DNA of 39,214 bases. Source: a virus (lineage: Duplodnaviria; Heunggongvirae; Uroviricota; Caudoviricetes). The position numbers and the translations under genes were made by a program. The notes beneath the pieces are model-generated. The model searched no databases and was not told the DNA's origin. It saw only the letters and a program-made list of their open reading frames with translations. The stretch lies in the IMG/VR virus record IMGVR_UViG_2541047122_000029; one strand, 5' to 3'. Below are positions 4,027 to 39,214 of this stretch, piece by piece (the first letter of the stretch is position 1; each line of letters begins with the position of its first letter).

Positions 4027-4027
4027 G

Positions 4028-4578: not shown

Positions 4579-4582
4579 TTCC

Positions 4583-4876: not shown

Positions 4877-4887
4877 GGAAAAACAAA

Positions 4888-5418: not shown

Positions 5419-5515
5419 CACCACATTAAATCTTTAAATATCACATCGTTTTAATTATGGCGCTCGCGTCAGGGGACTGCCTGCGCCTGAAAGCTGAAAA
5501 TAAGGAATCGGAAAC

Positions 5516-6058
5516 ATGGCATATTTTTATTTCAAATTAGACATAGTGTACACAAATAAATATTTAACCGAATATCAGCGGGATGTTTTACCGCTACGCA
5601 ACAGTATTCTTCGGGCATTACTGAAAAATACAGGCGCTGCCGGATTGCGCTTAAAGCCGTTCGCCATGGACGTAATCAGTGAGTTTTATTTTTCTGGTTC
5701 TCTGCCTGCGGGCTGGCGTAAGCGCGATGATGTGGCTTTTATCGGGGGCGGACCGTGCTTTATTGCCAGACCTGATGAGTCATGCCCTGAAGGTCCGGCG
5801 ATTGCCGCAATGGTTGAAGCCGCTGAACGCGAGTTAAGAAAGCGTCCTGATTTCCTTGTCTGGCTCTGTGAAAAGCTGGGGGTAATGAGAATCCCCTCCA
5901 TGTTTAACACGGACTCCTGGTGGACCCCGTCACTCTCCCGTGATGCCCTGTGCGTGGTGTTTAAAGTAGGAACTTATGGCAGGGAAATAAAAGGGGGTAT
6001 TCCTGAAGAATGCCAGGAGATTAAACATTCTGAATATGTGGCGCTGACGGAGGAATAA
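5516..6058 (+). CDS. Hypothetical early protein
   Basis: 180-aa ORF after the only intergenic gap in the early operon (5419-5515); RBS TAAGGA upstream. Confidence 0.6.
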   Translation: MAYFYFKLDIVYTNKYLTEYQRDVLPLRNSILRALLKNTGAAGLRLKPFAMDVISEFYFSGSLPAGWRKRDDVAFIGGGPCFIARPDESCPEGPAIAAMVEAAERELRKRPDFLVWLCEKLGVMRIPSMFNTDSWWTPSLSRDALCVVFKVGTYGREIKGGIPEECQEIKHSEYVALTEE

Positions 6059-6061
6059 TTC

Positions 6062-6595
6062 ATGATTGATGCAAAAGTGCTTGAAGGGGTTAAAAACTGG
6101 CTGCGTATTTACGGACGTCTGACCTGCGGTATTCTGGCTGAAAAAATGAATATGCCGCCATCCTCCATGGTTTATTTTCTGCGTGATGCGGTTGATGCAG
6201 GCGTGCTGACGGAATGTAACGGTTTTTATGATATTCCGCGTCCCCGCCCGGTGCAGCCGGTTCGTCGCAAATGCAGCCAGGAGTCTGCGGCTGATGATGT
6301 TCAGTGGTGCAGCTTCAGAAAATCCCTGCCGTGGATTGAAGGGCATGATATTCCGTCGATGGCGTGGGAATTTGCTCAGGGCGTGCTGACCTGTGAAACC
6401 GTTTATGTGGTGGCTGAAGTTGATGAGCAGGCCATGAAAGAAGGCGTGCCCCAGTTTGTGATGTCGTATATCGACATCCGCCTGGGCGTCATTATCTGCG
6501 GTTTAAGCGGCTGGAATATCACCTCGCGCGTTCTGCGTTACCTGATTGTTGACCGGACGGCCGCGCCTGCCGGGATATCAGCGGAGGTGGCGTAA
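6062..6595 (+). CDS. Hypothetical early protein
   Basis: 177-aa ORF packed 3 nt after the previous stop. Confidence 0.6.
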   Translation: MIDAKVLEGVKNWLRIYGRLTCGILAEKMNMPPSSMVYFLRDAVDAGVLTECNGFYDIPRPRPVQPVRRKCSQESAADDVQWCSFRKSLPWIEGHDIPSMAWEFAQGVLTCETVYVVAEVDEQAMKEGVPQFVMSYIDIRLGVIICGLSGWNITSRVLRYLIVDRTAAPAGISAEVA

Positions 6596-7110
6596 TGTTC
6601 TTTAAAACATCAAACCCTTCCGCGCTGGCTGCGTGGCAAAAATACCAGCAGGACTGCCAGACGGTAAAAGATGAGGCGAAACGCCTTGAGGCCGTGCTGA
6701 ATGTTGCGTGCCGGTCGGTATTTGAATTCAGTATCAGTGGTTTTTGTTTTAAGGGACTGCGTTTTACGGAGGACAAATATCCTTTTCATCGTGATTTATG
6801 GCGAAAACCAACTGCGTCGAATGGCTGGAGCTGCACACCGCGCACATCACGTATTCCCAAAGCCCTGCGCGTTGCCTCTGACGAACTTAACAGTCTGTGG
6901 CGTGAATATTCGCCCGTCACGTATGCCAGAACCGATGCACTGTTGTTCTGGCTGGGCATTGATTTCTCGGCAATCCTGTTTGGCCCTGTGGAGTGGTTCT
7001 GCGTTGACGATGTGATTTACCTTCAGTGCGGCGTAAAACCCGCAAAACAGAAAATGACCGAAATTCTGTCTGATGAGTTTTATGCTGCTGAAAAGCGAGT
7101 CAGGGGGTGA
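6595..7110 (+). CDS. Hypothetical early protein
   Basis: 171-aa ORF; start overlaps previous stop (TAATG). Confidence 0.6.
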   Translation: MFFKTSNPSALAAWQKYQQDCQTVKDEAKRLEAVLNVACRSVFEFSISGFCFKGLRFTEDKYPFHRDLWRKPTASNGWSCTPRTSRIPKALRVASDELNSLWREYSPVTYARTDALLFWLGIDFSAILFGPVEWFCVDDVIYLQCGVKPAKQKMTEILSDEFYAAEKRVRG

Positions 7111-7113
7111 TGC

Positions 7114-7665
7114 ATGATGATATTACAACCCATGGGGAGAAAAGGCCGTGCACCCGCTCATGTTCGCGCATGGACACCTGAAGAAGATGCGCTGCTGATT
7201 GCGCTTTATCCATCCACCCCGGTTAAGGATATTGCTGTCAGGATAAAAAGAAGTTTCTGGGGTGTACATAACCGGATTGTTTTATTACGCGGTACTTACC
7301 CGGAGTTGCTCAAATGCAAACGCCTCAGATTTAAACCTGATGAAGATAAATTTATCCGAAAAAATGCCAGAACAATGACCGGTAAGCAAATAGGAGAATA
7401 TCTGGGGCGAGACCGGGATTCTGTCCACAATCGGGCGCGATATATTGGCGTAAGCATGAAAAAATACGGAGAGTTGCTGCCCTTCACCCGCATACCTGAC
7501 GATGATGTTCGTCTTATTCGTGAATTACGGGATGCTGAATCACCACGGCGTCTTACCTTTAGGGAAATCGGCGAGAAATTTGAATTATCCGAGGGCACGG
7601 TGAGTTTTATTTATCACCGTCGTCGGACTGCCGAAGATGTTGTATTACGGGAATTAATGCCATGA
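7114..7665 (+). CDS. Hypothetical protein with three tandem HTH-like repeats (putative DNA-binding)
   Basis: 183 aa; three repeats of about 45 aa (WTPEEDALLIALYP.., KPDEDKFIRKNARTMTGKQIGEYLG.., DDDVRLIRELRD..LTFREIGEKFELSEGTV); RBS GGGGGTGA upstream. Confidence 0.6.
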   Translation: MMILQPMGRKGRAPAHVRAWTPEEDALLIALYPSTPVKDIAVRIKRSFWGVHNRIVLLRGTYPELLKCKRLRFKPDEDKFIRKNARTMTGKQIGEYLGRDRDSVHNRARYIGVSMKKYGELLPFTRIPDDDVRLIRELRDAESPRRLTFREIGEKFELSEGTVSFIYHRRRTAEDVVLRELMP

Positions 7666-7973
7666 TAACGACATTATTTGTTGAATCAGATGAACCCCTT
7701 GTGTGTGCCGTCGGAATGCCGGTCTGTGGCGGAACGCTGACCGGTGTTTATTTCGGGGATTTGCGCGGTTATCCCTGGCATTCACTGAATGATGCTTTCC
7801 CGCCTGATATGGAGGCTGTCGTGCTGATTGTTCAGTATGGTGACCAACAGGAACTGCGCATCGGCCATATGGGGTATGAAGGCTTTTTTATTGATGAAGA
7901 AACCGGAGCCTGCCTTGAAGATGAGGACGGACAGGTGACGCACTGGTGCCATATTTCAGCTTTACCGGAATGA
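7662..7973 (+). CDS. Hypothetical early protein
   Basis: 103-aa ORF overlapping the previous stop by 4 nt. Confidence 0.55.
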   Translation: MITTLFVESDEPLVCAVGMPVCGGTLTGVYFGDLRGYPWHSLNDAFPPDMEAVVLIVQYGDQQELRIGHMGYEGFFIDEETGACLEDEDGQVTHWCHISALPE

Positions 7974-8338
7974 CGGGAGGTGAATGCGTGAGAAGTTATA
8001 TTGATAATGAAAAACTGAAGACAATCAGCGACTGTCTTAGCTTGCTGGCAAAAATAAAAGAAACCATTGAAGAGATTAAATTTCAGCTTGAATACGAACC
8101 CTGTGGCGATGATACATGGCGTAACTCTGCCAGAAAAGCACTGGCTGTCTTTCAGAAACAACGCCGGACTGTTGAATACCGCCTTGCTGTATTGCGCCAG
8201 GAGGAAAAGGAAAGAAATATAAGACGTCATGAACTCGTTAATGATTTTCTTGTTCGTGAATTAAAGGAGCGTGTGCCGGAGTCGGTATTTTTTGAGTGTG
8301 AGGCTGTTGCCCGTAGCAAAGCACTGGAAACTGATTAA
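7970..8338 (+). CDS. Hypothetical early protein
   Basis: In-frame ATG at 7970 overlaps the upstream stop (ATGA); track ORF 7946-8338 begins earlier; alternative GTG 7988 after GGGAGG. Confidence 0.5.
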   Translation: MTGGECVRSYIDNEKLKTISDCLSLLAKIKETIEEIKFQLEYEPCGDDTWRNSARKALAVFQKQRRTVEYRLAVLRQEEKERNIRRHELVNDFLVRELKERVPESVFFECEAVARSKALETD

Positions 8339-8350
8339 ACAGGCAGGTGA

Positions 8351-8686
8351 ATGATGAGTATTGAATTAAGATCGTCTTATGAATATCGTAAAATTCTCAT
8401 CGCCGGAGGCATGAAACCGGAAGATGCAGAAAAAATTGTTTCTTTTATGGATAAAGAATGTGACAAACGGGATATGCCAGAAATTATTATGGATGACATG
8501 ATTCTGCATTCAGCCGTAGCGTTAAGCCCGTTATGGATTGTGCATTCTCTTGCTGAAATTGCCAAAGGCACCGATAAACAGGCAGCTGTTGCTGCCCTTC
8601 AGACGCTTAATGAAATGCGTATATCTCCACGCCCGACATTAATACATATGATTCTCTCCAGTATGGAGGATAAAGCAAATGAATAG
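8351..8686 (+). CDS. Hypothetical early protein
   Basis: 111-aa ORF; AGGTGA RBS before the start. Confidence 0.55.
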   Translation: MMSIELRSSYEYRKILIAGGMKPEDAEKIVSFMDKECDKRDMPEIIMDDMILHSAVALSPLWIVHSLAEIAKGTDKQAAVAALQTLNEMRISPRPTLIHMILSSMEDKANE

Positions 8687-8876
8687 TCTACCCGCTGGAT
8701 GGGCGCGGCCACTAATGGCCAGGAAGCATCATTTTTTTAAAACAGGCGAAAATATCAGTATATGTGGACGGTGGTTATATCTGGCTCATAATCGCGAGCC
8801 GGATACATTTGAAAGCCCTGATGACTGTGCCGAATGCCGCAGAAGAGTGAATAAGGAGAAAGATAATGGACAATAG
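8679..8876 (+). CDS. Hypothetical small Cys-containing protein (possible zinc ribbon)
   Basis: 65 aa; Cys at ICGRW and CAEC; overlaps both neighbours. Confidence 0.45.
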   Translation: MNSLPAGWARPLMARKHHFFKTGENISICGRWLYLAHNREPDTFESPDDCAECRRRVNKEKDNGQ

Positions 8877-9162
8877 TTCTCTGTTGTTCTGGTGCTTATA
8901 TATCACATCCTTTTTCGGCGCATTTGTTATTACCCGGTGGTTATGTCGAAAAATCATCTGCTTTTTTGATAAAAGACATCCGGTTGAACGGGCGGCTGAT
9001 GCGCTCATTCAGCAGGCCATTGTGTTATATAGCGGTGAATTTTTCTGCCGAATAACAACCAGAGATGGCTGGCACATAATGATTATTCCACCAACACACC
9101 ATGCCCGGTGGGATGAGGCAGAAAAGGCTTTCCATGTCCGTAAAAAGGTAAATACGGTATGA
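8866..9162 (+). CDS. Hypothetical protein with N-terminal transmembrane helix
   Basis: 98 aa; hydrophobic N-terminus LLFWCLYITSFFGAFVITRWL. Confidence 0.5.
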   Translation: MDNSSLLFWCLYITSFFGAFVITRWLCRKIICFFDKRHPVERAADALIQQAIVLYSGEFFCRITTRDGWHIMIIPPTHHARWDEAEKAFHVRKKVNTV

Positions 9163-9668
9163 GAGGAAAACTGATATCCGCCATTCATGTGGCAAAGCGC
9201 GAGCTTGCCCTGGATGATGAGACTTATACATCCGCGCTGCTGGCAGCCACCGGCAAAACCAGCTGCCGGGATATGTCACCGGATGAGTTATCCCGCGTGC
9301 TGGATGTTTTCAAAAAACGCGGTTTTAAAGTGCGCCAGAAGCCGGTTAACCAGGCCTTAAAACCGGGTACGGTGACCGCCAAAATTCGTGCCATCTGGAG
9401 GGTGATGCACCGGCAGGGCTTTATCTCTGATGGTGCGGAAACCGCCCTTAACCGCTGGGTGAAATCGCAGACGGCCGCGCAGAACGGTGGCGAAGGTGTG
9501 GCAAACTGGCAGTGGCTGGAGCAACACCCCGCCCTGGCCTCAGATGTGCTGGAGCGTCTCAAGCGATGGCACCGCCGCAAAATGCTGGCCGCGATGGGAA
9601 TGCCCGAACGCACGCTGATGGGGTATGACGCCGTTTGCAGGCAGTATGAAAAATCACTTCCCCGTTAA
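9159..9668 (+). CDS. GemA-like protein (Mu gp16-like)
   Basis: 169 aa; N-terminal ...LISAIHVAKRELALDDETY... resembles the Mu GemA family as I recall it; last gene of the early operon, before a strong terminator. Confidence 0.55.
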   Translation: MRGKLISAIHVAKRELALDDETYTSALLAATGKTSCRDMSPDELSRVLDVFKKRGFKVRQKPVNQALKPGTVTAKIRAIWRVMHRQGFISDGAETALNRWVKSQTAAQNGGEGVANWQWLEQHPALASDVLERLKRWHRRKMLAAMGMPERTLMGYDAVCRQYEKSLPR

Positions 9669-9672
9669 CCCC

Positions 9673-9706
9673 AAATCCCGCCACAGCGCGGGATTTTTAT
9701 TTTAAA
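9673..9706 (+). terminator. Rho-independent terminator ending the early operon
   Basis: Perfect 9-bp stem AAATCCCGC (9673-9681) / GCGGGATTT (9688-9696), 6-nt loop, then TTATTTTAAA. Confidence 0.8.
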
Positions 9707-9737
9707 CTTACCGGGAACGCGAGAACCGGAGGCTGAT

Positions 9738-10163
9738 ATGGCAGAAACTCAGATGAGCATGTTTGGTGGTGACAGTGAGCAACTGCACGCCCTTATCGAC
9801 CGCCTTGATGACATCCCTGATGATGTTCTCAAAAAGAACTGGCCACGGACCCTGTCAGAACTGGTTGAAGTCACCGGCGCAGAACTTCAGCGTCAGGGGA
9901 TTGAGCCGGTACTGGCCGGTAAACTGGCACGCAAGGTGGCTGCGGCTCAGGCCGCCTATATGGGCGGACGGGGTTATTACCTGCCGGTCGGGGAATCTCT
10001 CTTTGCCGAGCTGCGAAACAATGAGATATTTTCGCGCTGGGACCGGGGCGAGAAAATTGAATCCCTTCGCCGACATTACCGGATGTCAGAAACCCAGATT
10101 TATACCGTCATACGTGAACAGCGCCGTCTGCATCTGGCAAGAACGCAACCGCCACTTTTCTGA
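9738..10163 (+). CDS. Mor/C-family transcriptional activator (middle/late gene activator)
   Basis: 141 aa; resembles Mu Mor/C (acidic N-terminus, C-terminal HTH ...SETQIYTVIREQRRL...). Only one member of this family is present in the window. Confidence 0.75.
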   Translation: MAETQMSMFGGDSEQLHALIDRLDDIPDDVLKKNWPRTLSELVEVTGAELQRQGIEPVLAGKLARKVAAAQAAYMGGRGYYLPVGESLFAELRNNEIFSRWDRGEKIESLRRHYRMSETQIYTVIREQRRLHLARTQPPLF

Positions 10164-10167
10164 TATT

Positions 10168-10181
10168 CCGCAAAGCCTGCC
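10168..10181 (+). promoter_or_regulatory. Candidate activator-binding motif of the lysis/late promoter
   Basis: CCGCAAAGCCTGCC, 54 bp upstream of the endolysin ATG; near-identical motif at 18095-18108 upstream of gene I. Confidence 0.4.
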
Positions 10182-10234
10182 GCCTTTCCTTCACCGTTAC
10201 GCTGACTCAGAGAACATCATGAGACAGCGTAACA

Positions 10235-10735
10235 ATGCCAAAACTCCCCGCACCACTGCGTAAAAAGCTGATTGCCCTTGTTCTGGCCGGTGCCGGGACG
10301 TTCACGATTGCCACGCATTACACCGGTTACTGGGAAGGGAAAGAAAACTCCACGTATATCGATCCCACCGGTACACCCACCATCTGTTACGGCCATACCG
10401 GCCCGGATGTGAAACCGGGTATGACCCTGACGGATGAAGAATGCCTGGAACTACTGGAAAAGGACATGAAATGGGCCTTTGCGGCCATTGATCGGCGTGT
10501 TCAGGTGCCGCTTACCCGTGGTCAGACGGTGGCGCTGGCTTCGTGGATCTTCTGGGCTGGTGAAACGAACTTCCGCAACTCCACGCTTCTGCGCCTGATC
10601 AATGCCGGGCAGATGCCCGCGTCCTGTAAGCAGTATATCCGCTGGATTTATTCAAAGGGGGTGAAACTTCCCGGCCTTGAGGCCCGCCGTTCGGCGGATG
10701 AATGGTTATGTCGCTACGACTTGCCGAAAGTCTGA
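10235..10735 (+). CDS. SAR endolysin (phage lysozyme, T4-lysozyme/GH24-like)
   Basis: 166 aa; N-terminal weakly hydrophobic signal-anchor-release segment LIALVLAGAGTFTIATHY; YWEGKENSTYIDPTGTPTICYGHTG contains the Glu-Asp-Thr catalytic pattern. Confidence 0.85.
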   Translation: MPKLPAPLRKKLIALVLAGAGTFTIATHYTGYWEGKENSTYIDPTGTPTICYGHTGPDVKPGMTLTDEECLELLEKDMKWAFAAIDRRVQVPLTRGQTVALASWIFWAGETNFRNSTLLRLINAGQMPASCKQYIRWIYSKGVKLPGLEARRSADEWLCRYDLPKV

Positions 10736-17960: not shown

Positions 17961-18094
17961 TTGTTTAAGGTATGCAAATGCATTACCTTACCCCCTTCAG
18001 GCGCGTGTCGTGATTTTCTAACCTGTATTTAACGGGCTTTAAAATCTGCGTGAAGCGCCTTTGTATTTTTCCCCTGGAAGCACTTCCTGAAATC

Positions 18095-18108
18095 CCGCAA
18101 AACCCGCC
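18095..18108 (+). promoter_or_regulatory. Candidate activator-binding motif of the head-gene late promoter
   Basis: CCGCAAAACCCGCC in the 176-bp gap upstream of gene I; shares CCGCAAARCCYGCC with 10168-10181. Confidence 0.4.
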
Positions 18109-29871: not shown

Positions 29872-30953
29872 TGCCTTATCAGCCCTTACCACTGGCGCAA
29901 CTGATCACACAGACACAACAGGATATCAGCCAGCGCCTGCCCGGTTCGCAGCCGGGCGTGAATGAAACCACCCTGAATGCCATTGCGTATGCACTGGCGG
30001 GTCTGTCAGCACAGGAGCATGAACATCTGGCCTGGATCTCCCGGCAGATAATTCCGACAGAAGCTGATGAAGCCGAACTCCTGAAACACTGCGCATTCTG
30101 GGGTGTCATCCGTAAACCGGCTTCCCGCGCTGACGGACCGGTACAACTGATGCTGACCACGGATGCAGGGATCACGGAAGGCGTACTCCTTCAGCGAAGC
30201 GATGGTGTTGTGTACCGCATCACCGGCTCTGCGACCGGAAAAGCCGGAACACTGAATGTTAATGTGGAGGCGGAAAGTGCGGGGCGCGCCGGAAATACCC
30301 CGACCGGAACCCGCCTGTCCTTTATCACGCCACAGGCGGGCATCAACCAGACAGCCACGGTTACCGGCACGGGACTCACCGGTGGTGCGGATGTGGAAAC
30401 GGTGCCGGAGTTGCTGTCCAGGCTGGTATTCCGGGTACAGAACCCGCCATCAGGGGGAACACAGTATGATTTTGAACGCTGGGCACGGGAAGTACCGGGC
30501 GTGACGCGGGCATGGTGTAAGCCTGAATGGCCTGAGGCGGGTAGTGTTGGTGTGACTTTTGTTCAGGATAATAACCCTGACATTTTCCCCGGAGAAGGTG
30601 ATGTGAAGCGGGTGGCGGATTATATCCGCAGTCATGATGATCCGGCGACGGGCCAGCCCGTTGGTCAGCCACTTGGGCCGACAATCAGCGTGTTTAAGCT
30701 GACCAATAAGCCGGTGGCGTTTGAGATCAGGATTGTACCCAAAACGCCGGAAAATCAGGCTGCCGTAAAACAGGCATTAACGGACCTGCTTTATAACGAA
30801 TCGCGGCCGGGTGGACTTGTATTGCCTTCATCATTCTGGCGGGCTGTTGCAGGGGTGAAAGGACTGGAGGATTTTGAAGTTCGCAGTCCGCTGAAGTCCG
30901 TGATGGCCGGAGATACAGAGTTGCTGACTGTGGGGGAAATCACATGGCTGTAA
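29868..30953 (+). CDS. Baseplate J-like protein (Mu gp47-like)
   Basis: 361-aa ORF, overlapping start/stop with neighbours. Confidence 0.8.
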   Translation: MMPYQPLPLAQLITQTQQDISQRLPGSQPGVNETTLNAIAYALAGLSAQEHEHLAWISRQIIPTEADEAELLKHCAFWGVIRKPASRADGPVQLMLTTDAGITEGVLLQRSDGVVYRITGSATGKAGTLNVNVEAESAGRAGNTPTGTRLSFITPQAGINQTATVTGTGLTGGADVETVPELLSRLVFRVQNPPSGGTQYDFERWAREVPGVTRAWCKPEWPEAGSVGVTFVQDNNPDIFPGEGDVKRVADYIRSHDDPATGQPVGQPLGPTISVFKLTNKPVAFEIRIVPKTPENQAAVKQALTDLLYNESRPGGLVLPSSFWRAVAGVKGLEDFEVRSPLKSVMAGDTELLTVGEITWL

Positions 30954-31504
30954 CCCTGACCCCGCATCAGCGCGCCCTGTTGCAGTTGCTGCCTGACGGG
31001 CTGGCATGGGATAAGCGGCCGTCATCCGTTCTTGCAGCTTTGTGCCTGGGCCTCAGTCATTCCACGGAGCGTGTTTCCTGGACCGGTAACCAGATGCTGG
31101 CAGAACGTTTTCCTGATTCATCCCGTCTGCTGCTGGAAGACTGGGAGCGTTATCTGGGGTTACCGGAATGTGATATGACCGGCGCAACCATTCAGGAACG
31201 TCAGCGTTATGCAGGGAATAAATACCGGATGAAACCCTCTCTTAACCGTGAATTTTATATCCGGTTTGCGGCAGAGTTTGGTTATGAAATAGATATTCAG
31301 CCATCACCGGATTCACAGTGGGTCAGTATTGTCACGATAAACAGTGAAACCGGCTACCGGAATATGAATGTGCTGGATGATATTCTCACCCCGCTGCGTA
31401 TTTATGAGGGTGGTGCGCTGGAATGTATTCTGAACCGTTATAAGCCTGCATGGCAGACGTTTATTTACGTATATGCAAACAGTCACGAAGAGGAGACTAT
31501 TTAA
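30944..31504 (+). CDS. Tail protein (Mu gp48-like)
   Basis: 186-aa ORF preceding the tail-fibre gene. Confidence 0.7.
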   Translation: MAVTLTPHQRALLQLLPDGLAWDKRPSSVLAALCLGLSHSTERVSWTGNQMLAERFPDSSRLLLEDWERYLGLPECDMTGATIQERQRYAGNKYRMKPSLNREFYIRFAAEFGYEIDIQPSPDSQWVSIVTINSETGYRNMNVLDDILTPLRIYEGGALECILNRYKPAWQTFIYVYANSHEEETI

Positions 31505-32415
31505 TGTTCCATGTTGATAATAATTCCGGCGTGGCGAATATGCCTGAACTGGCTCCGGCGCAGAGTAATACCACCACCTGGTTTACCGAAGGTGACGGAC
31601 AAAAAGGTATCAGCTGGATTGGTCAGGACTGGCTGAATATTCTCCAGGCCGAACTGCTGAATATTCTGGCTGAAGCCAGTATTCAGCCGGATAAGGCGCA
31701 GTTAAACCAGCTTACGCTGTCCATTAAAGCCATTATCGCTGCGAATGCCTTTTCCCGGAAAAACAACCTGAAAGAAATTGCTGATGCCGGTGCGGAAGCC
31801 CAGCGTCTGGCCCGTGGTTATCTTGGTCTGGGGACGCTTGCCACAAAAAACAGTCTTGGTCCCGCTGACGTTAATGCCCTGGCGAAGGATCAGAACCTTG
31901 CCGACCTGGAGAATGCGGAAACCGCCCGTAATAATCTGGATGTTTACAGCAGGAGCGAAGGTGATAACCGTTACCTGCGCAGGGAGCAGAACGGCGCAGA
32001 CATTCCGGATAAAGGCGCTTTTATCGATAACGTCGGTTTACGGGAAACGGTAAATAAGGCTGCTGATGCCCTGCCATCGGGTGGAACCGCCGTGGCAGCA
32101 AACAGACTCGCCACCCCAAGAAATATTAATGGCGTTCCTTTTGACGGAACGCAGGATATCAACATCACGTCAGGAATGACGCAGTCAACCGCAGATGGCC
32201 GGTATGTACAGAATGTTCAGCTTGGAGCACAGAGCTATCATTCACCCGGAGGCAATGAAATATCATGGAATTACAGCGCACCTTCCGGTTGTATGCTTTC
32301 CGGTATTAACGTGCAGGAAACCGGCTCCCGGTCTGCGGACAATATCGGTGGGGTCTATTATCGCCCGGTTCAGATTTATATTAATAATGCCTGGAGAACG
32401 GTAAGTTCAGTGTAA
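31504..32415 (+). CDS. Tail fibre protein (Mu S-like); constant N-terminal part plus variable C-terminal part in the current orientation
   Basis: ATG 31504 inside track ORF 31450-32415 (TAATG overlap). The 3' part from about 32035 lies inside the invertible segment and is paralogous to the minus-strand segment 33093-33458. Confidence 0.8.
   Translation: MFHVDNNSGVANMPELAPAQSNTTTWFTEGDGQKGISWIGQDWLNILQAELLNILAEASIQPDKAQLNQLTLSIKAIIAANAFSRKNNLKEIADAGAEAQRLARGYLGLGTLATKNSLGPADVNALAKDQNLADLENAETARNNLDVYSRSEGDNRYLRREQNGADIPDKGAFIDNVGLRETVNKAADALPSGGTAVAANRLATPRNINGVPFDGTQDINITSGMTQSTADGRYVQNVQLGAQSYHSPGGNEISWNYSAPSGCMLSGINVQETGSRSADNIGGVYYRPVQIYINNAWRTVSSV
32021..32046. other. gix-like crossover site (left) of Gin-type invertible segment
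   Basis: TTATCGATAACG-TC-GGTTTACGGGAA, 12-bp half-sites around a 2-bp core at 32033-32034; resembles Mu gix / Salmonella hix half-sites as recalled; inside the tail-fibre gene where homology with the minus-strand segment begins. Confidence 0.65.
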
Positions 32416-32425
32416 ACCACAGAAA

Positions 32426-32444
32426 AGGGTGCTGAATGCACCCT
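32426..32444 (-). terminator. Hairpin between convergent fibre gene and assembly gene (likely terminator for the minus-strand unit)
   Basis: AGGGTGC (32426-32432) / GCACCCT (32438-32444), 5-nt loop; on the minus strand it is followed by TTTTCTGTGG. Confidence 0.5.
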
Positions 32445-32449
32445 CTGAA

Positions 32450-32971
32450 TTATTCCGGTTTTTCCGGCCAGGGAATCGCCTGGTAATGCCCCTCACTGGC
32501 AATATCATTAAAGTGCATTTCTTTAAGCTGTCGGATATACGCCATCCAGCGCGTCAGCTGTAATTTATTTTCATCGCTAATCATGTCCAGTTTTAATTCT
32601 GTTTTCCAGTCATCCACGGTTTCGTTGGCTTCCTGGAGCAGCGATGAGCGACGCTTTTCAGCAACCGTCTTCCAGTTTACCGGCACCTTTGATATCAGGC
32701 CATCAGAAAACTGCCAGTTACCGTCAATATTCACACCTTCCGGCAGTTCGTCCACTTCAACAACAGTAAAACCTGCCGGATATAAAGCAGAGACATCTTC
32801 AGCAACAGAGCAGATAATACCCGTTACAGGCGAAATACAGAGTTTGTATTTCTTTGTGAAAAGCGGGATAGATTCATAAAAATCCCTTCCGTCCTCACTC
32901 TGGAAATACTGAACATCCTCACCATAGGGTTTGTCTTTCGGGTAATATCGTTTGACATTAATCAGTTGCAT
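32450..32971 (-). CDS. Tail fibre assembly protein (Mu U/U'-like chaperone)
   Basis: Minus-strand ATG at 32971 (RBS GGTGA) inside track ORF 32450-33022; N-terminus MQLINVKRYYPKDKP... and C-terminus ...WPEKPE resemble Mu U as I recall it. Confidence 0.8.
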   Translation of the reverse strand: MQLINVKRYYPKDKPYGEDVQYFQSEDGRDFYESIPLFTKKYKLCISPVTGIICSVAEDVSALYPAGFTVVEVDELPEGVNIDGNWQFSDGLISKVPVNWKTVAEKRRSSLLQEANETVDDWKTELKLDMISDENKLQLTRWMAYIRQLKEMHFNDIASEGHYQAIPWPEKPE

Positions 32972-33092
32972 AAACATCACCATGTAAATCAATGATAAAA
33001 ACAGGAATAATACTATCGCCATATACAGGCAATGCTTGTCTGAAATAACGCATATTTCAGATGCTGGCTGCTGTGTGCTATGCCCCCGTTAA

Positions 33093-33458
33093 TTAAATAC
33101 TTGCAGCGGATACCCAATGCCCATTAATACAATATTGTATCTGTCTGTAATAAACACGGTCATCACCACCACGCATTTCCCAGTCTCCGTTAGTCTTAAA
33201 ACCGGTAATCACATTTCCTGATGACAGGGAGTAATTATATTCCAGTCCGCCGCTTAATGCCTGCGCTCCCAGTCTTACCCCTGTAACATAACGCTGATTG
33301 GCCGTTGATTCCGGCATTCCTGACGTAATGTTTATATCCTGCGTGCCGTCAAAGGCGACACCATTGATTCTGCGGGCATTTGCCAGCCTGCTTGCTGCAA
33401 CAGCCGTACCGTTTGATGGCAGGGCATTCGCGGCCCTGTTTACCGTATCCCGTAAACC
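33093..33458 (-). CDS. Alternative tail-fibre C-terminal segment (S'v-like; no own start, expressed only after inversion)
   Basis: Minus-strand frame open from the crossover site to the stop at 33093-33095; encodes RDTVNRAANALPSNGTAVAAS...GTQDINITSGM..., paralogous to fibre residues LRETVNKAADALPSGGTAVAAN...; a TGA lies in frame just upstream of the site. Confidence 0.7.
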   Translation of the reverse strand, partial: GLRDTVNRAANALPSNGTAVAASRLANARRINGVAFDGTQDINITSGMPESTANQRYVTGVRLGAQALSGGLEYNYSLSSGNVITGFKTNGDWEMRGGDDRVYYRQIQYCINGHWVSAASI

Positions 33459-33472
33459 GAGGTTTCAGGGAT
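33447..33472. other. gix-like crossover site (right) of Gin-type invertible segment
   Basis: ATCCCGTAAACC-GA-GGTTTCAGGGAT, near-perfect palindrome with 2-bp core at 33459-33460, inverted relative to the left site; about 55 bp upstream of the invertase start. Confidence 0.7.
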
Positions 33473-33526
33473 GCCGTATATCTGCTTTAAAAGGCCTTTC
33501 CACCTCTTTTTAAGGAAGGTAAATAC

Positions 33527-34087
33527 ATGCTGATTGGCTATATACGCGTATCAACAAATGACCAGAACACAGGTTTACAAAGAAATGCGCTGGAATGTGC
33601 AGGATGTGAGCAGATTTTTGAAGACAAAATGAGTGGTAAAACGACACAGCGGCCGGGACTGAAGCGGGCACTGAAGAAACTAAAACCCGGTGACACGCTG
33701 ATGGTCTGGAAACTGGACAGGCTGGGGCGCAGTATGCGCCACCTTGTTGCGCTGACAGATGAATTACAGCAACAGGGGATAAATTTTCGTAGTTTTACTG
33801 ACAACATTGATACGTCAACCCCCATGGGGCGCTTCTTTTTTCACATAATGGGTGCGCTGGCAGAAATGGAGCGTGAATTAATTGTCGAACGGACACGGGC
33901 TGGTCTTGCAGCTGCCCGTGAAAGGGGACGAACCGGCGGCAGACCCCGCCGTCTCACGCAGGAACAATACGAGCAGGTCGGGCGTTTACTGGCCGGGGGT
34001 GTCAGTCGAAGACAGGTGGCACTTATTTTTGATATCGGTCTTTCAACCCTTTATCGTTATTATCCTGCGAGCGTTTCGGAAAAATAA
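33527..34087 (+). CDS. gin: Gin/Hin/Cin-family serine DNA invertase
   Basis: 186 aa; resolvase-type catalytic N-terminus MLIGYIRVSTNDQNTGLQ (catalytic Ser), C-terminal HTH; RBS AAGGAAGG upstream. Confidence 0.9.
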   Translation: MLIGYIRVSTNDQNTGLQRNALECAGCEQIFEDKMSGKTTQRPGLKRALKKLKPGDTLMVWKLDRLGRSMRHLVALTDELQQQGINFRSFTDNIDTSTPMGRFFFHIMGALAEMERELIVERTRAGLAAARERGRTGGRPRRLTQEQYEQVGRLLAGGVSRRQVALIFDIGLSTLYRYYPASVSEK

Positions 34088-34186
34088 GACGCTCTCTTTG
34101 TTGGGCCTTTACTGAATTAACGCAAAATGGCGTTTATCGGTCTGTGGATATGATAATTCAGTTTATTCAGGAACAGGCTGATTATT

Positions 34187-36226
34187 ATGACGTCCAAATG
34201 GGTTCAACTATCATCAATGCCCGGAAACTTTACTGTTAAAGTTTCCGGTGGTACAGCGGCATTTCTTGAGGCTCCCTTTCCTCCGGCCGAAACAAAAGGA
34301 GGAATGACATTTGCTGACTGTCTCATCAGTTTTAATACACGGGATTGCCTGTGGGTAAGGCCAGTATCCGGTGATCCGAGTGTGGAAATTACCGGAGCGG
34401 GTATTGGTGCGGTCATTCCGTTAAGTGCTGATGTTGCCGGTACTGCTGAACCGTCAGACTGGGATAATGCTGAAACACATACCCGTCCGTCAGGAAATGA
34501 AACTGCTTCCAGCTCCCCTTCCTGGTATTACGTGGTGGTTCTTGCTGGTCAGTCAAACGGTATGGCTTACGGTGAAGGTCTGCCACTGCCGGAGACATAT
34601 GACCGCCCCGAACCGCGTATTATGCAGTTAGCCCGTCGCAGTACAGTCACGCCGGGAGGTAAAGCCTGTCAGTATAACGACATCATTCTGGCCGACCACT
34701 GTCTGCATGATGTGCAGGATATGAGTGGAAAAAATCACCCGAAAGCGGATGTGGCTAAAGGGCAATATGGCACCGTGGGTCAGGGGCTTCACATTGCCAA
34801 AAAACTGCTGCCGTTTATTCCGGCAGATGCGGGGATTCTGCTGGTTCCCTGCTGCCGTGGTGGTTCTGCATTCACGGCGGGTGCTGACGGCACGTACAGT
34901 GACAGCACGGGTGCTTCAGAGGACTCAGCCCGCTGGGGTGTGGATAAGCCGCTGTATAAGGACTTAATCAGCCGGACAAAAGCGGCACTGGCGAAGAACC
35001 CGAAAAACCGCCTGCTTGCTGTGGTGTGGATGCAGGGCGAGTTTGATATTGATGCGAAGCCGACGGAGCATTCTGCGCTGTTTCTGGCGATGGTGGAAAA
35101 ATTCCGCGCAGACCTGGCTGAACAGGCGGAACAGTGTACCGGTGGCAGTGCTGCTGGCGTTCCGTGGATTTGTGGTGATACCACGTATTTCTGGAAACAG
35201 AAAAACGAACAGGCATACCAGGCAATCTATGACGGCTACAAAAATAAAACAGATAAAAACATTCATTTCGTCCCATTAATGACAGATGAAAATGGCGCGA
35301 ATGTACCCACCAACAATCCGGCAGAAGACCCGGATATTGAATCCATTGGTTATTACGGCTCAACGTGGCGTAACAGTGCCGCCACCTGGACATCTACGGA
35401 CCGGGCCAGCCATTTCAGTTCATGGGCACGTCGTGGGATTATTTCCGACCGTCTGGCCACGGCAGTTCTGACTCATGCGGGGCGAACCACAGTAAAAGCC
35501 GATGTTCCATCTTCTGAAACTGAAGCACCAGTGCCGTCACCTTCAGAAACTGAAGCAGTAACCACAACACTGCTGTCTTACCGTGTCAGTGAGTCAGAAG
35601 GAAATCTGAAAGCCCAGGGCTGGGAGCCGGCTGGCGGTAAAGCTGAAATTATCAGTGATGCAGGAGGCACAGGTGGTAAGGCAATGAAACTGACCAAGGA
35701 AACAGGTAAATCATCCTGGTATCTGGATCATGATGCCGGTACTGGTGCTGAACTGCTGAAAAATGGTGGTTTAATCAGTTGTCGTTTTAAAGTACCGGGC
35801 GACCTGGTGGCAAACCAGTATGTCATGGCGCTTTACTGGCCGGTTTCCTCTCTGCCGCAGGGTGTCACCCTGACAGGGGATGCAGGGAATAATCTGCTGG
35901 CATCGTTCTACATCCAGACAGACGCAAAAGACCTGAATGTGATGTACCACAATGCAAAAGTGGCAACAAATAACCAGAAACTGGGAACCTTTGGTGCATT
36001 TGATAATGAATGGCATACGCTGGCCTTCCGTTTTGCAGGAAATAACAGCCTTCAGGTTATTCCGGTTATTGATGGTCAGGATGGTGCCGCGTTTACCCTG
36101 ACGCAGTCACCAGTAGGAACTTTCCCGGTGGACAAACTCCGCGTAACGGATATCACAAAAAATGCAACTTACCCGGTGCTGATTGACAGCATTGTGGTGG
36201 AAGTGAAAAAAGCGGTAACAGAATAA
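34187..36226 (+). CDS. Multidomain SGNH/SASA-type carbohydrate esterase with Pro/Ser/Thr/Glu-rich linker and C-terminal lectin-like domain (cargo gene)
   Basis: 679 aa; AGQSNGMAYGEG (catalytic-Ser GQSN block), WMQGEFD and DRASHF motifs match sialate O-acetylesterase-type domains as recalled; linker PSSETEAPVPSPSETEA; no N-terminal signal peptide; sits between gin and com/mom, where Mu has no gene. Confidence 0.75.
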   Translation: MTSKWVQLSSMPGNFTVKVSGGTAAFLEAPFPPAETKGGMTFADCLISFNTRDCLWVRPVSGDPSVEITGAGIGAVIPLSADVAGTAEPSDWDNAETHTRPSGNETASSSPSWYYVVVLAGQSNGMAYGEGLPLPETYDRPEPRIMQLARRSTVTPGGKACQYNDIILADHCLHDVQDMSGKNHPKADVAKGQYGTVGQGLHIAKKLLPFIPADAGILLVPCCRGGSAFTAGADGTYSDSTGASEDSARWGVDKPLYKDLISRTKAALAKNPKNRLLAVVWMQGEFDIDAKPTEHSALFLAMVEKFRADLAEQAEQCTGGSAAGVPWICGDTTYFWKQKNEQAYQAIYDGYKNKTDKNIHFVPLMTDENGANVPTNNPAEDPDIESIGYYGSTWRNSAATWTSTDRASHFSSWARRGIISDRLATAVLTHAGRTTVKADVPSSETEAPVPSPSETEAVTTTLLSYRVSESEGNLKAQGWEPAGGKAEIISDAGGTGGKAMKLTKETGKSSWYLDHDAGTGAELLKNGGLISCRFKVPGDLVANQYVMALYWPVSSLPQGVTLTGDAGNNLLASFYIQTDAKDLNVMYHNAKVATNNQKLGTFGAFDNEWHTLAFRFAGNNSLQVIPVIDGQDGAAFTLTQSPVGTFPVDKLRVTDITKNATYPVLIDSIVVEVKKAVTE

Positions 36227-36231
36227 AAAAA

Positions 36232-36260
36232 TCCCGCCGGTCATGATATGGCTGGCGGGA
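36232..36260. other. Stem-loop immediately downstream of the esterase gene
   Basis: TCCCGCC (36232-36238) / GGCGGGA (36254-36260); preceded by A7 (36224-36230), so it reads as hairpin plus U-run on the minus strand; no U-tract after it on the + strand. Confidence 0.4.
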
Positions 36261-36372
36261 GCTACCTAACCCATAAAGGAAAATAAAAATACTCCCGAAG
36301 GAGTGGTTATCAGTCGCTTCGATGTTTTTACCCGATAACGAATTATGTAGTCAATATCAAAGGTAAGGTTAT

Positions 36373-36555
36373 ATGACATTCGTTCATACAATGCTGCTTT
36401 ATTTCTGCGCAGTGGTCAGTGCGTTATATCTGGTGAGCGGCGGTTATAAGGTCATCAGAAATTATATTCGCCGTAAAATTGATGATGCGGCAGCTGAAAA
36501 ACTCAGTAAAACAGCACAGGCACCGTCATCCCCAAACGACCCGACCCCGCTCTGA
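36373..36555 (+). CDS. Small single-pass membrane protein (cargo, unknown function)
   Basis: 60 aa; TM helix MLLYFCAVVSALYLVSGGY then charged tail; RBS AAGGTAAGG upstream. Confidence 0.55.
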   Translation: MTFVHTMLLYFCAVVSALYLVSGGYKVIRNYIRRKIDDAAAEKLSKTAQAPSSPNDPTPL

Positions 36556-36590
36556 TAACGGGGCAATATACCTGCAAAAGGAGAATATTC

Positions 36591-36836
36591 ATGCCAGAGA
36601 TTAAAGGCACGGTTACTGAAGAGCTTGTCAAACAGGCACTTTATTCTGAAGAAGTGAACCGCGTGCTGAAGGCGCAGGTTCGCAAGGATTTTGAGGCACA
36701 AATCGACGCATATGTTGATGAAGTGCTGGCCCGAATGGTTGGCCATTCTCCGGCTGAAAACAGCACGGAGAATGAGCCTCAAGCCGTAGAGCAACCAGAG
36801 CCGGTTCAGCCCGGAACTGACGGTACTATGATGTAA
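36591..36836 (+). CDS. Small acidic helical protein (cargo, unknown function)
   Basis: 81 aa; RBS AAAGGAG 8 nt upstream of ATG; followed by a clean terminator. Confidence 0.65.
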   Translation: MPEIKGTVTEELVKQALYSEEVNRVLKAQVRKDFEAQIDAYVDEVLARMVGHSPAENSTENEPQAVEQPEPVQPGTDGTMM

Positions 36837-36845
36837 CAATACCGA

Positions 36846-36876
36846 CCGGCAGGTTTCCCTGCCGGGTGAATTTGTT
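36846..36876 (+). terminator. Rho-independent terminator after the small two-gene cassette
   Basis: CCGGCAGG (36846-36853) / CCTGCCGG (36858-36865), loop TTTC, then GTGAATTTGTT. Confidence 0.7.
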
Positions 36877-37045
36877 AATGCACGTTTTGTGTACTTTCCC
36901 TCCGGGGAGAACAGGCAGGACATATCAGCATCCTGAAACAGGACGCATTTTGGGGTTTGTATGTCTTGCCATTTTGAGATCGAGAACGGCGATAGATGAG
37001 CTGTAAGGGAGTCTTACAGGCAGGGCAAACAGGCTCTTTATCCAT
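36875..37045 (-). CDS. Possible small zinc-ribbon protein, divergent from com/mom (low confidence)
   Basis: Minus-strand 56-aa ORF MDKEPVCPACKTPLQ...CPACSPRRE with two CPAC pairs; AAGGAG 9 nt upstream of ATG at 37045; track ORF 36875-37069 starts 8 codons earlier. Confidence 0.3.
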   Translation of the reverse strand: MDKEPVCPACKTPLQLIYRRSRSQNGKTYKPQNASCFRMLICPACSPRRESTQNVH

Positions 37046-37139
37046 GATAAAGATCTCCTTTTTATGCATCTCTGCTTTACAGGAGACCGGGGAATATCAT
37101 AGGATACGACACGAGCTCGAAGTAAAGCATTGATGCGAA

Positions 37140-37410
37140 TTTGTTCCAGGTCCAGATAGCTGTAACTATCTGGACCTCCCTTTATGTAGTATCCTGTTGA
37201 TTTGAAACATACTACATATACGCGCGATCCTACCTTCACTGTATAAAAAGTCAATAAAATGATCATTTTATGATCGTTTTCACCACCTAAGTCTTCGTTT
37301 TCTTTAAGTAAATAATCACCGCCCTGAATCATTGTTGATGACTTTTCAATCTATTTGTTGTATCAATTAAACAAATCGAATCGATCGTTTTTGTCGATCG
37401 ATTGCATGAG
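37140..37410. promoter_or_regulatory. com/mom upstream control region (palindromes plus GATC cluster, likely Dam-methylation-sensitive promoter)
   Basis: AT-rich. 12-bp inverted repeat AGGTCCAGATAG (37148-37159) / CTATCTGGACCT (37166-37177); 9-bp inverted repeat ATGTAGTAT (37184-37192) / ATACTACAT (37209-37217); GATC at 37226, 37261, 37272, 37383, 37396. Confidence 0.6.
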
Positions 37411-37446
37411 AAAGGCATCAACAACAAAGCAGGAGGTTATGCGGCC

Positions 37447-37647
37447 ATGTATCGAAACATACGGTGCCGACACTGCAATAAGCTACTGGCACGGGCCAGT
37501 TTCAGTTATCTGGAAGTAAAATGTCCGCGCTGTAAAACCCTCAATCAAATCACATCTCCGAGCGCCACAGAGCACCCCACATACACAAGGAAATCCTGTC
37601 GTGGGGAACAGAAAGCAAGTCACATCCCGTATCATCAGCACGCCTGA
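37447..37647 (+). CDS. com: Com-like zinc-finger translational activator of mom
   Basis: ATG 37447 (RBS AGGAGG) inside track ORF 37402-37647; [13 protein letters not shown]...[12 protein letters not shown] matches Mu Com (IRCKNCNKLLFKA...IRCPRCKRH) as I recall it; overlaps the next gene. Confidence 0.75.
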
Positions 37648-38338
37648 ACTTATTCGCTATAACGACAATATCGTTGGTTATGGCTCCCGTGAGTTGCGGG
37701 TTGAGACAATAAGTTGCTGGCTGGCCAGACTGGTCATCGTCAATAAACATTACAGCCACCGTTTCGTAAATAACTCCTACCTTCATCTGGGCATATTTTC
37801 AGAACGGGAGCTGGTTGGCGTAATGCAATGGGGCTATGCCCTTAATCCAAACAGTGGTGCACGCGTCGTAACGGGCACGCGGAACCGTGAATATATGGAG
37901 CTTAACCGGTTATGGCTGCATGACTGTATGCCGAGAAACTCCGAATCAAGGGCAATCAGTTACGCGCTCAAGCTAATCAGGCAGCTTTATCCGCAGGTAC
38001 AGTGGGTTCAGTCGTTTGCAGATGAGCGTTGTGGCTGTCTTGGTGTCGTGTATCAGGCAAGCAATTTTGATTATGTAGGCAGCCACGAATCAACATTCTA
38101 TGAACTTGATGGCGAGTGGTATCACGAGATTTGCAGGAATGCCATTAAACGAGGCGGACAGCGAGGTGAACATCTGAGGGCTAATATCGACAGAGCCAGT
38201 GTTCATAAATTCCGTCAGTTTCGTTACATCCGGTTTCTGAACAAGAGGGCCAGAAAACGCCTCAACACAAAGCTATTCAAAGTCCAGCCTTACCCAAAAC
38301 CACAAACAGTTAAAACTGGTTTAAAAGAGAGTGAGTGA
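37601..38338 (+). CDS. mom: Mom-like DNA modification protein (anti-restriction)
   Basis: 245-aa ORF overlapping the end of com; ...[16 protein letters not shown]...[23 protein letters not shown] resembles Mu Mom as I recall it. Start uncertain (GTG 37601 in track). Confidence 0.75.
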
Positions 38339-38449: not shown

Positions 38450-38920
38450 AAAATCGCCGCGCTATAGGCTTTTGCTGAGTTACAAAGGCGAATTCTGGAT
38501 AATCAACAGACAGGGAGTGCGCAATCTGATGCAGCATTGCTCTGGAGTTTTTGGAACTCTTACTCTGCAGATGAACTGGTCGATGACTTAGTCATTCGCT
38601 GTGGTCTGGAAAGCGCCGTTGAAATCGTCCTTTTTGCCCTTCAACTCAAATATAAACCAGTAAAAGGCGCAGTAACCACCATCATTCCACCTAATCACGA
38701 AGCAGAATCGCTACCTAGTTAGCATCAACGTCTATGTCATCATCTTTCACTCGCTTCAGAAGATGAGTGGCAACGCTGTGTAGATAAAGTACTCACCGCC
38801 ATTCCGACGCTATCCCCCGCACGGCAACCTTTTGCGGCGTTACTGCTCCCTGAACGCCCGGATATCGCCCATGCTATAGATCTACGCTATGCAGACCAAA
38901 ACGTCCCGGCGATGACCTGG

Positions 38921-39214
38921 TGAACCGCCCCGGGTTTCCTGGAGAGTGTTTTATCTGTGAACTCAGGCTGCCAGATCATCGTTTCCGATGGAAGCATAAT
39001 AAGCTTTTTCTGCTTCTGCCGGAGGAGTATGGCCCAGCCTTCCCAGCAATCGTCGATTGTTATACCAGTCCACCCACGTTAGTGTGGCCAGTTCCACTTC
39101 TGCACGGTTTTTCCAGCTCTTACGGTGTATTACCTCCGCTTTGTAAAGACCATTGATGCTCTCAGCCATCGCGTTGTCATACGAGTCGCCTGTACTCCCT
39201 GTTGATGCCAGTAA
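38921..39214 (-). mobile_element. IS3-family insertion sequence, partial (continues past window end)
   Basis: Terminal sequence TGAACCGCCCCGGGTTTCCTGGAGAGTG from 38921; minus-strand transposase 3' end lies 42 bp inside it. Confidence 0.8.
38963..39214 (-). CDS. IS3-family transposase OrfB, C-terminal fragment (5' part outside window)
   Basis: Minus-strand frame open to the window edge: ...GDSYDNAMAESINGLYKAEVIHRKSW..., matching the DDE-integrase C-terminal block of IS3-family OrfB; stop at 38963-38965. Confidence 0.8.
   Translation of the reverse strand, partial: LLASTGSTGDSYDNAMAESINGLYKAEVIHRKSWKNRAEVELATLTWVDWYNNRRLLGRLGHTPPAEAEKAYYASIGNDDLAA

Follow-up and report, generated by a model that had tools for sequence, protein, structure and literature searches.

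The mom promoter of bacteriophage Mu is the textbook example of a phage that uses the Dam methylation and the OxyR protein of its host to time the expression of a toxic DNA-modification gene. This promoter, Pmom, is governed by both host functions (PMC3378877). Here we describe the corresponding region of a Mu-like transposable prophage of Shiga-toxigenic Escherichia coli (STEC), contained in the IMG/VR record IMGVR_UViG_2541047122_000029 (39,214 nucleotides; this whole stretch of DNA is called the window, and all positions refer to it). Five GATC sites precede the genes com and mom in this prophage, and they constitute two unrelated features. The segment 37353-37398, which holds the two sites proximal to com, is probably a Dam-methylation-sensitive OxyR operator that gates com-mom, and the three distal sites would belong to an independent leftward promoter that is probably Dam-sensitive as well.

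Several described systems can be compared with this locus. In Mu, the three GATC sites are located at -109, -91 and -78 from the com ATG, and they are followed by a binding site for the phage activator C (TTATgccccaATAA) and then by a promoter whose -35 hexamer is poor and is separated by 19 bp from the -10 hexamer TAAGAT; the leader measures about 22 nt. Transcription there requires dam, mutation of oxyR lifts this requirement, and OxyR recognises the DNA only in the unmethylated or hemimethylated state. The agn43 (flu) gene of E. coli K-12 carries an experimentally established OxyR/Dam operator and behaves as a heritable ON/OFF switch that needs neither a phage activator nor a translational activator. 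Its GATC sites are spaced by 19 and 13 bp, its two OxyR half-sites agree with the consensus at 8 of 10 positions each, and the operator overlaps the -10 hexamer and the start site of the promoter and extends downstream of them. In the gtr operon of Salmonella phage P22, 13-bp-spaced GATC pairs lie within single OxyR half-sites, and methylation abolishes OxyR binding; one pair in a half-site suffices for this sensitivity (PMC2909390). One of the pairs (-46 and -33) overlaps the gtr promoter, and the half-site consensus has been published as ATAGxTxxxAxCTAT (PMC2909390). For reduced OxyR a half-site spacing of 32 bp is canonical, and half-sites with only 7-8 matches out of 10 are functional at opvAB of Salmonella (PMC4856963). 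In both gtr and opvAB, phase variation results from alternative OxyR sites that exclude each other and together comprise three or four half-sites, whereas only one full site is conserved in the window.

The five GATC sites of the window are found at 37226, 37261, 37272, 37383 and 37396, that is, at -221, -186, -175, -64 and -51 relative to the com ATG (37447). This agrees with an initial annotation of the DNA, in which two clusters of GATC sites had been placed within about 220 bp upstream of com. The genes named in that annotation are genuine too. The com gene (37447-37647, plus strand), also annotated in RefSeq, codes for the zinc-ribbon translational activator of mom (Pfam PF10122, E 2e-12), and mom (37601-38338, plus strand), which has a GTG start and overlaps com, codes for the adenine-hypermodification enzyme (Pfam PF25680, E 4.5e-77), 80% identical to Mu Mom. 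The proximal sites are therefore positioned directly before an overlapping com-mom operon, as in Mu.

The proximal GATC pair (37383-37399) consists of two sites, 37383-37386 and 37396-37399, 13 bp apart. It is held by a 15-mer that resembles an OxyR half-site, h2 (ATCGTTTTTGTCGAT, 37384-37398), and a second 15-mer of this kind, the GATC-free h1 (ATTTGTTGTATCAAT, 37353-37367), is located 31 bp upstream of h2; each agrees with the consensus at 7 of 10 positions. Hence the locus presents a 13-bp-spaced GATC pair within one OxyR half-site, as in gtr, and GATC sites in a two-half-site operator of the OxyR type (about 31-32 bp), the latter as judged by sequence only. When 15-mers at every offset were scored against the consensus (10 scored positions) in 18 representative com-mom loci, two peaks were obtained, at X+1 and X-30, X being the first GATC of the pair, where the scores averaged 6.6 and 6.3 out of 10, respectively. 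In the window, 15-mers with a score of at least 7 represent 0.13% of the total. Throughout the 39 kb, only two pairs of such 15-mers are spaced like OxyR half-sites (21, 22 or 30-32 bp), namely 37353/37384 (31 bp) and 37331/37353 (22 bp). The additional member of the second pair, 37331-37345, also scores 7/10 and lies 22 bp from h1; it straddles the boundary (37338) of an exchangeable cassette described below, is not conserved, and reaches about 5/10 in relatives with another cassette (alignment by eye). The best match of the window to the half-site consensus (9/10) is a different, GATC-containing 15-mer, ATAGATCTACGCTAT (38876-38890), situated about 0.5 kb to the right of mom and judged to be beyond the approximate right end of the prophage.

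The likeness to agn43 is close. Its operator core, tcGATCgtttatatcGATCgata, and that of the window, tcGATCgtttttgtcGATCgatt, are identical at 20 of 23 positions, the h2 half-sites at 13 of 15, and the two half-sites are 32 bp apart in agn43 and 31 bp apart in the window. The two loci differ in the number of GATC sites, three in agn43 and two in the window, and in that the strong promoter of agn43 (TTGTCC-17-TAGAAT, score 12.1) has no equally strong counterpart in the window; besides, heritable switching is a property of agn43 that is at most conceivable for com-mom.

Position statistics alone are weak, and the decisive evidence is comparative. By means of a profile hidden Markov model, com was located in 160 loci encoding Mom relatives (species-representative genomes and IMG/VR), and a set of 42 loci of the window type was gathered from IMG/VR and metagenomes. 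The 17-mer that contains the proximal pair, GATCGTTTTTGTCGATC, is exactly kept in all 42 window-type loci. Both h1 and h2 are invariant in the 10 distinct variants of this type, in which neighbouring bases vary; the most variable stretch, 37403-37418, between the operator and the ribosome-binding site, even tolerates a 6-nt indel. The distal sites behave differently: all three are present in 20 of the 42 loci, two in 3, and none in the 19 that carry another cassette. In the latter relatives (for instance L087 and L101, with com-mom 93-94% identical), homology to the window begins precisely at 37338, the segment 36866-37337 is replaced by an unrelated one of 579 bp, and homology resumes leftward in genes of the DUF1378 and DUF826 families. 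The positions of the sites, their conservation, the match to OxyR sites and this module boundary are matters of direct observation. Because of the 42-locus comparison and the boundary at 37338, the segment 37338-37446 (plus strand) can be considered a conserved cis-regulatory unit that travels with com-mom, and the distal trio a part of the cassette. The unit starts with ATGAC(T/A) and comprises h1, h2, the variable stretch and the ribosome-binding site AGGAGG (37431-37436).

All five sites could instead form one extended Dam/OxyR control region of mom, a larger version of the three-site region of Mu. They do lie within 221 bp upstream of com, in a non-coding stretch rich in A+T, and the Mu region is also upstream of its promoter. 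However, 19 of the 42 near-identical relatives lack the trio and yet keep com-mom and the proximal operator. In addition, the distal sites 37261 and 37272 are 11 rather than 13 bp apart, and the 15-mer across them scores about 4/10 by eye and is not among the matches of at least 7. The distal sites coincide, moreover, with the -10 hexamer and with the region upstream of the -35 hexamer of a leftward promoter whose position is conserved. Such a single region has little probability.

This leftward promoter belongs to the exchangeable cassette (36866-37337, 472 bp, minus strand), which is bounded on its left by a bidirectional terminator (36846-36865) and consists of the promoter, a structured leader of about 175 nt and a 56-aa open reading frame (ORF). 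The predicted promoter is sigma-70-like (37227-37254, minus strand), with TTGACT (37254-37249) and TAGGAT (37232-37227) separated by 16 bp. The distal trio (37226-37275) is arranged around it: the site at 37226 overlaps the -10 hexamer (TAGGATC), and immediately before the -35 hexamer those at 37261 and 37272 make up the sequence GATCAT-N3-ATGATC. The position of the promoter is kept in three homologs with diverged sequence, L111 (TTGACT-17-TAAGATC), L261 (TTGACT-16-TACGATC) and L112 (TTGACG-17-TATAAT, a consensus promoter without GATC). A GATC site over the -10 hexamer, as in pIN of IS10, is thus kept in two of the three, and the window, L111 and L261 all retain both this site and the GATC adjoining the -35 hexamer, although their -10 hexamers and spacers differ. 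These data suggest that the activity of the leftward promoter depends directly on Dam methylation, and the promoter is probably Dam-sensitive because one GATC overlaps its -10 hexamer. The transposase promoters of IS10 (pIN) and IS50/Tn5 are Dam-sensitive and have GATC in the -10 hexamer. The likeness concerns the GATC over the -10 hexamer and the hemimethylated state that would arise in an element that transposes and replicates; unlike these promoters, that of the window would drive a small zinc-ribbon gene behind a long structured leader and not a transposase.

Transcription from the leftward promoter is predicted to start near 37220, with a conserved hairpin at the 5' end of the transcript. 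A second leader hairpin (37148-37177) shows compensatory changes between the window (GGTCCAGATAG/CTATCTGGACC) and the relatives L111 and L112 (GACCCGGTAG/CTACCGGGTC). The 56-aa ORF (37045-36875, minus strand), preceded by an AAGGAG ribosome-binding site, codes for a CxxC...CxxC zinc-ribbon protein whose sequence has been kept in L111 and L112 despite the divergence of the DNA. This protein reaches the threshold of none of the families in Pfam and NCBIfam, and its sole PHROGs match is weak (E 0.006, function unknown). In L261 a different zinc-ribbon protein and a transmembrane cargo are found behind the same promoter and leader start. Another minus-strand ORF of 135 aa (36925-37332), which RefSeq assigns to a frameshifted pseudogene and which matches only phrog_26524, a family of its own type, is a probable artefact that overlaps the leader of the zinc-ribbon gene, and the 'frameshifted hypothetical protein' of RefSeq (36875-37332) is probably an artefact of the cassette arrangement. 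In 36700-37700 no Rfam family was found, the best match being a chance one (E 0.17).

The presence of GATC sites before com is a trait of enterobacterial loci. In Enterobacterales, the 110 bp that precede com contain 2-3 sites, with a mean of 2.86 against 0.44 expected. No such excess is seen in Pseudomonas and marine Gammaproteobacteria, Alphaproteobacteria or Desulfovibrionia, with 0.33-0.42 sites per 110 bp against 0.29-0.69 expected from their own GATC density; nor is there any clustering or excess before com of GANTC, the CcrM-type site, alphaproteobacterial com-mom loci included. Anchored on X, the enterobacterial sites fall on one lattice (X-31, X-18/19, X and X+13) from which each lineage occupies a subset. 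The Mu type (-18, 0, +13) is represented by 21 distinct sequences, an arrangement with the spacing of agn43 (-19, 0, +13) by 2, and another (-31, 0, +13), which includes Edwardsiella (L005), by 4. Seventeen sequences have -18 and 0, 15 of which read CATC at +13, and 14 have only 0 and +13, these being the window type plus L111. At X-18 and X-31 the window reads AATT and TATT, respectively. Wider scans of viral and metagenome contigs for a short operator-to-com spacing mostly returned the same lineages. A large enterobacterial class, to which L121, L125, L126 and related IMG/VR loci belong, has its GATC sites at X-18 and X within the palindrome GACGATCGATA-N6-TATCGATCGTC; in this class CATC replaces GATC at X+13, the same substitution by which experimenters eliminate a Dam site while sparing the OxyR consensus.

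Within the unit, the proximal pair is enclosed by a perfect inverted repeat with 9-bp arms, AATCGATCG-N7-CGATCGATT (37379-37403). This palindrome might be recognised by a factor other than OxyR (SeqA on hemimethylated DNA, a C-like activator or another phage protein) or form a hairpin in the com leader RNA, the GATC content then being incidental or serving sequestration. The perfection of the repeat, flagged as terminator-like on the minus strand by a scan, is in favour of this explanation, as is the fact that it would be transcribed if the promoter were upstream; SeqA, for its part, is an ancillary factor at opvAB (PMC4856963). However, the palindrome arms are not conserved in the other com-mom classes, which keep only the GATC tetranucleotides and their 13-bp spacing; because of this, neither a hairpin nor a longer protein site appears to have been maintained. 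A spacing of 13 bp is out of helical phase for SeqA pairs, which counts against SeqA. Furthermore, CGATCG is absent near the other late promoters of the phage, and a non-OxyR factor would not account for a GATC-free second half-site at the distance typical of OxyR. Recognition by OxyR is preferred, and this alternative is considered unlikely.

With an OxyR operator at this position, the switch could work as follows. Dam would methylate the adenines of both strands at 37383 and 37396, OxyR would then be unable to bind, and com-mom would be transcribable. Without methylation, or in the hemimethylated state that immediately follows replication, the sites would be bound by an OxyR tetramer, which would block RNA polymerase. 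The Dam protein of the host is the presumed modifier, because the early ORFs that were scanned revealed no methyltransferase domain. Compared with Mu, the mom switch would have been rearranged by keeping only the GATC-II/III pair, which in the window lies 27 bp closer to com.

The alignment with the Mu mom promoter region that had been proposed as a check fails at the DNA level: a blastn search (11-base words) of 36850-37700 against 50,697 phage records gave no match to Mu upstream of com. The regions were compared by anchoring on the GATC pair because of this failure, and the same half-site register then emerges. GATC-II and GATC-III of Mu have the 13-bp spacing of the window pair, and the Mu 15-mers in the h2 and h1 registers, ATCGGTAATACAGAT and ATAGAAAACGACGAT, score 7/10 each, with the same 31-bp partner distance. 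The initial annotation had regarded the sites as consistent with conserved methylation-dependent control of mom, with a number and spacing of sites that may differ from Mu. The first idea is well supported for the proximal pair, given its 13-bp spacing, its half-sites and its match to agn43, and fails for the five sites as one region; the second was right but understated, since two sites are present instead of three, 27 bp closer to com and without a Mu-type C site.

The absence of the activator site deserves attention. In the window only the 13-bp pair is found and not the three sites with 18- and 13-bp spacing of Mu, and no activator site of the TTAT-N6-ATAA or ATAACC type followed by a promoter lies downstream of the operator. 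Among the distinct sequences compared, a motif of the ATAACC type follows the operator (X+17 to X+50) in 17 of 21 of the Mu type and in none of the 14 of the window type. Searches for the Mu C-site motifs TTAT-N6-ATAA and ATAACCCC gave scattered matches only; one of them lies just upstream of com, with one mismatch, on the minus strand and over the ribosome-binding site, and is taken as chance. A candidate site of the phage's own C-like activator can be proposed: the 16-mer GAwATyCCGCAAArCC followed, after exactly 20 nt, by TAyGCT occurs only at 10162-10177, upstream of the lysozyme gene, and at 18089-18104, upstream of gene I (head protease/scaffold), and these are likely late promoters. Looser versions of the motif were uninformative. 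A 10-mer, CCGCCCTGAA, is shared by the regions upstream of gene I and com, and its occurrence is compatible with chance (about 0.17 expected in the compared regions by our own estimate). Because the com ATG follows the second GATC after a mere 47 bp, and neither an ATAACC-type site nor the phage's own late motif is found there, the Mu order of operator, activator site and promoter cannot fit in the window. The window operator is best described as a variant and not as a straightforward member of the Mu type, because both the three-site arrangement and the position of the operator upstream of a C site fail. A limited full-text search of the literature found no comparison of mom regulatory regions across phages, which is not proof of novelty.

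The com promoter was searched for by a consensus scan and with a position-weight matrix of our own, which recovered the agn43 promoter and no decisive one for com. Two layouts can be considered. In the first, which is the likeliest given that a Mu-type C-activator site is missing upstream of com, transcription would begin at the left edge of the unit and soon run through the operator, as in agn43; the odds of this layout are put at somewhat better than even. It is favoured by the high variability, with a 6-nt indel, of the stretch 37403-37418 downstream of the operator and by the beginning of the conserved unit at ATGAC(T/A). At this edge, ATGACT-17-TATCAA is a weak sigma-70 match, and relatives with the other cassette have a near-consensus rightward TTTAAA-17-TAAAAT directly to the left of the unit (score 10.7-12.1). 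In the window, ATAATCACCGCCC and ATGACT, the latter -10-like or -35-like, may tentatively be taken as rightward promoter elements (37311-37343, plus strand). A homolog with a diverged cassette, L261, keeps ATAATCcCCaCCCTGAATCATTGTTGATGAC, and its elements read ATAATCCCCACCC...ATGACT. The element of L261 and the window resembles the C sites of Mu late promoters, for instance ATAATCCCGCACC at the Mu lys promoter (PMC4461284).

In the second layout, the operator would be placed over the -35 hexamer and spacer of a weak promoter just downstream, as in gtr; this is possible but doubtful. Two window-type variants carry TTGTCG-19-TATCAT, a potential promoter just to the right of the pair or over it. 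Either way, bound OxyR would obstruct RNA polymerase directly, unlike in Mu, where it acts upstream of the activator site. The loci L111, L112 and L113 have, about 25-35 nt upstream of com and just before the ribosome-binding site, a hairpin with compensatory changes (GCCAC...GTGGC versus GCCG...CGGC) that is absent from the window type.

A promoter overlapping the pair (TTGTCG-19-CATCAA or TATCAT) would place the GATC at 37396 in its -35 hexamer, and methylation might then affect RNA polymerase or promoter strength directly, through GATC sites within or beside the core elements and without any repressor. A direct effect of this kind is likely for the distal leftward promoter, where GATC lies over the -10 hexamer. 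For the proximal pair it has very little probability, as it explains neither the conservation of the 13-bp spacing, nor the lattice common to this locus, Mu and agn43, nor the conserved GATC-free h1.

Several points weigh against an OxyR operator gating com-mom. Both half-sites match the consensus at only 7 of 10 positions, and six of the seven matches of h2 follow automatically from its GATCG/CGATC ends. At fixed register h1 is only moderately significant, consensus and region being both A+T-rich, because at the local composition the probability of a score of at least 7 rises to 0.4-0.8% per position. The best sigma-70 scores near com in the window are about 5.5, against 12.1 for agn43, so that no promoter is convincing, and the class D relatives (L111-L113) have good -10 hexamers, TATACT or TATAGT, at X+24 to X+26, which favour the downstream geometry; their hairpin overlaps these hexamers. 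Mu needs three GATC sites, and that two suffice here is an analogy with gtr. The late motif of the phage has no copy near com or at the tail genes, and its absence near com leaves the model without an account of late timing. OxyR binding, methylation dependence and promoter positions are, finally, what we infer rather than observe.

To these points must be added that the clustering itself could be due to chance in an A+T-rich intergenic region and be devoid of function: in Markov simulations of the whole window, a five-site span of 174 bp or less appears somewhere in 36% of runs. The five sites do form the tightest three-site (50 bp) and five-site (174 bp) clusters of the 39-kb window, and at local composition (35% G+C) five or more sites were obtained in 47 of 5000 runs (about 1%). 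The adjacent right arm, with tail-fibre and accessory genes (30729-36977, 6.2 kb), has 3 GATC sites against 17.9 expected, and the local contrast is large because of this roughly 6-fold depletion. Chance is already contradicted by the comparative data, that is, by a pair invariant in 42 of 42 loci and an enrichment specific to Enterobacterales, as well as by the depleted flanks, and it can practically be dismissed. As for the window as a whole, it contains 125 GATC sites against about 150 expected; the early region 3695-10360 avoids them, with a single site where trinucleotide counts predict 21.6, and the late structural region comes close to the prediction, with 103 sites for 123 expected.

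The prophage carries the transposase genes A and B, gam, gemA, a Mor/C-family activator, lysozyme, head and tail genes, and at its right end an invertase gene, com and mom. The activator gene (9738-10163, plus strand; Pfam Mor, E 2.8e-32) is located between gemA and the lysozyme gene, and its product, a late activator, shows 39% identity with Mu C, compared with 27% with Mu Mor. It is the sole gene of this family found in the window, and the phage seems to lack the separate middle (Mor) and late (C) activators of Mu. The 851 bases 36850-37700, which include the GATC region, com and the start of mom, are 100% identical in several chromosomes of E. coli O157:H7 and other STEC, and the stretch is matched in 233 of 5426 complete E. 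coli genomes, with different insertion sites. In other strains the right flank of the prophage is garL, a type VI secretion gene or a gene for an Ig-like protein, as expected for a transposable phage. In the window, the minus strand of 38963-39214 codes for the C-terminal part of an IS3-family-like transposase, whose ORF continues beyond the right end of the window. In a set of loci, many of them from Enterobacterales (L006, L009, L011, L013, L016-L019, L057 and L071, as well as L152, L155, L157, L158 and L239-L246), the Com profile detected no com-like ORF before Mom, and mom is therefore not always paired with com.

The class of mechanism proposed here is already well known, and the form found in the window is a variant of it. 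The Mu-type switch appears as an evolving lattice, in which different enterobacterial lineages keep different subsets of shared GATC positions. A common E. coli prophage carries a minimal version of it, with two sites, probably located over or after the promoter, and no Mu-type activator site, and this version is closer to the phase-variation operators of agn43 and gtr than to the operator of Mu. The arrangement is a natural test of the number and geometry of GATC sites needed for OxyR-mediated epigenetic control, and it raises the question of Mom expression from the prophage state in pathogenic E. coli. It is even conceivable, although the probability is low, that com-mom has lost the activator-site architecture of Mu, is gated mainly by an OxyR/Dam operator in the style of agn43 and gtr, placed over or after its promoter, and is phase-variable in STEC lysogens. 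If this were true, com-mom could be an epigenetic ON/OFF locus in lysogens besides its late lytic role, and some cells of a STEC population would hypermodify the adenines of their own DNA. The small zinc-ribbon gene would be co-regulated through a second Dam-sensitive promoter of divergent orientation.

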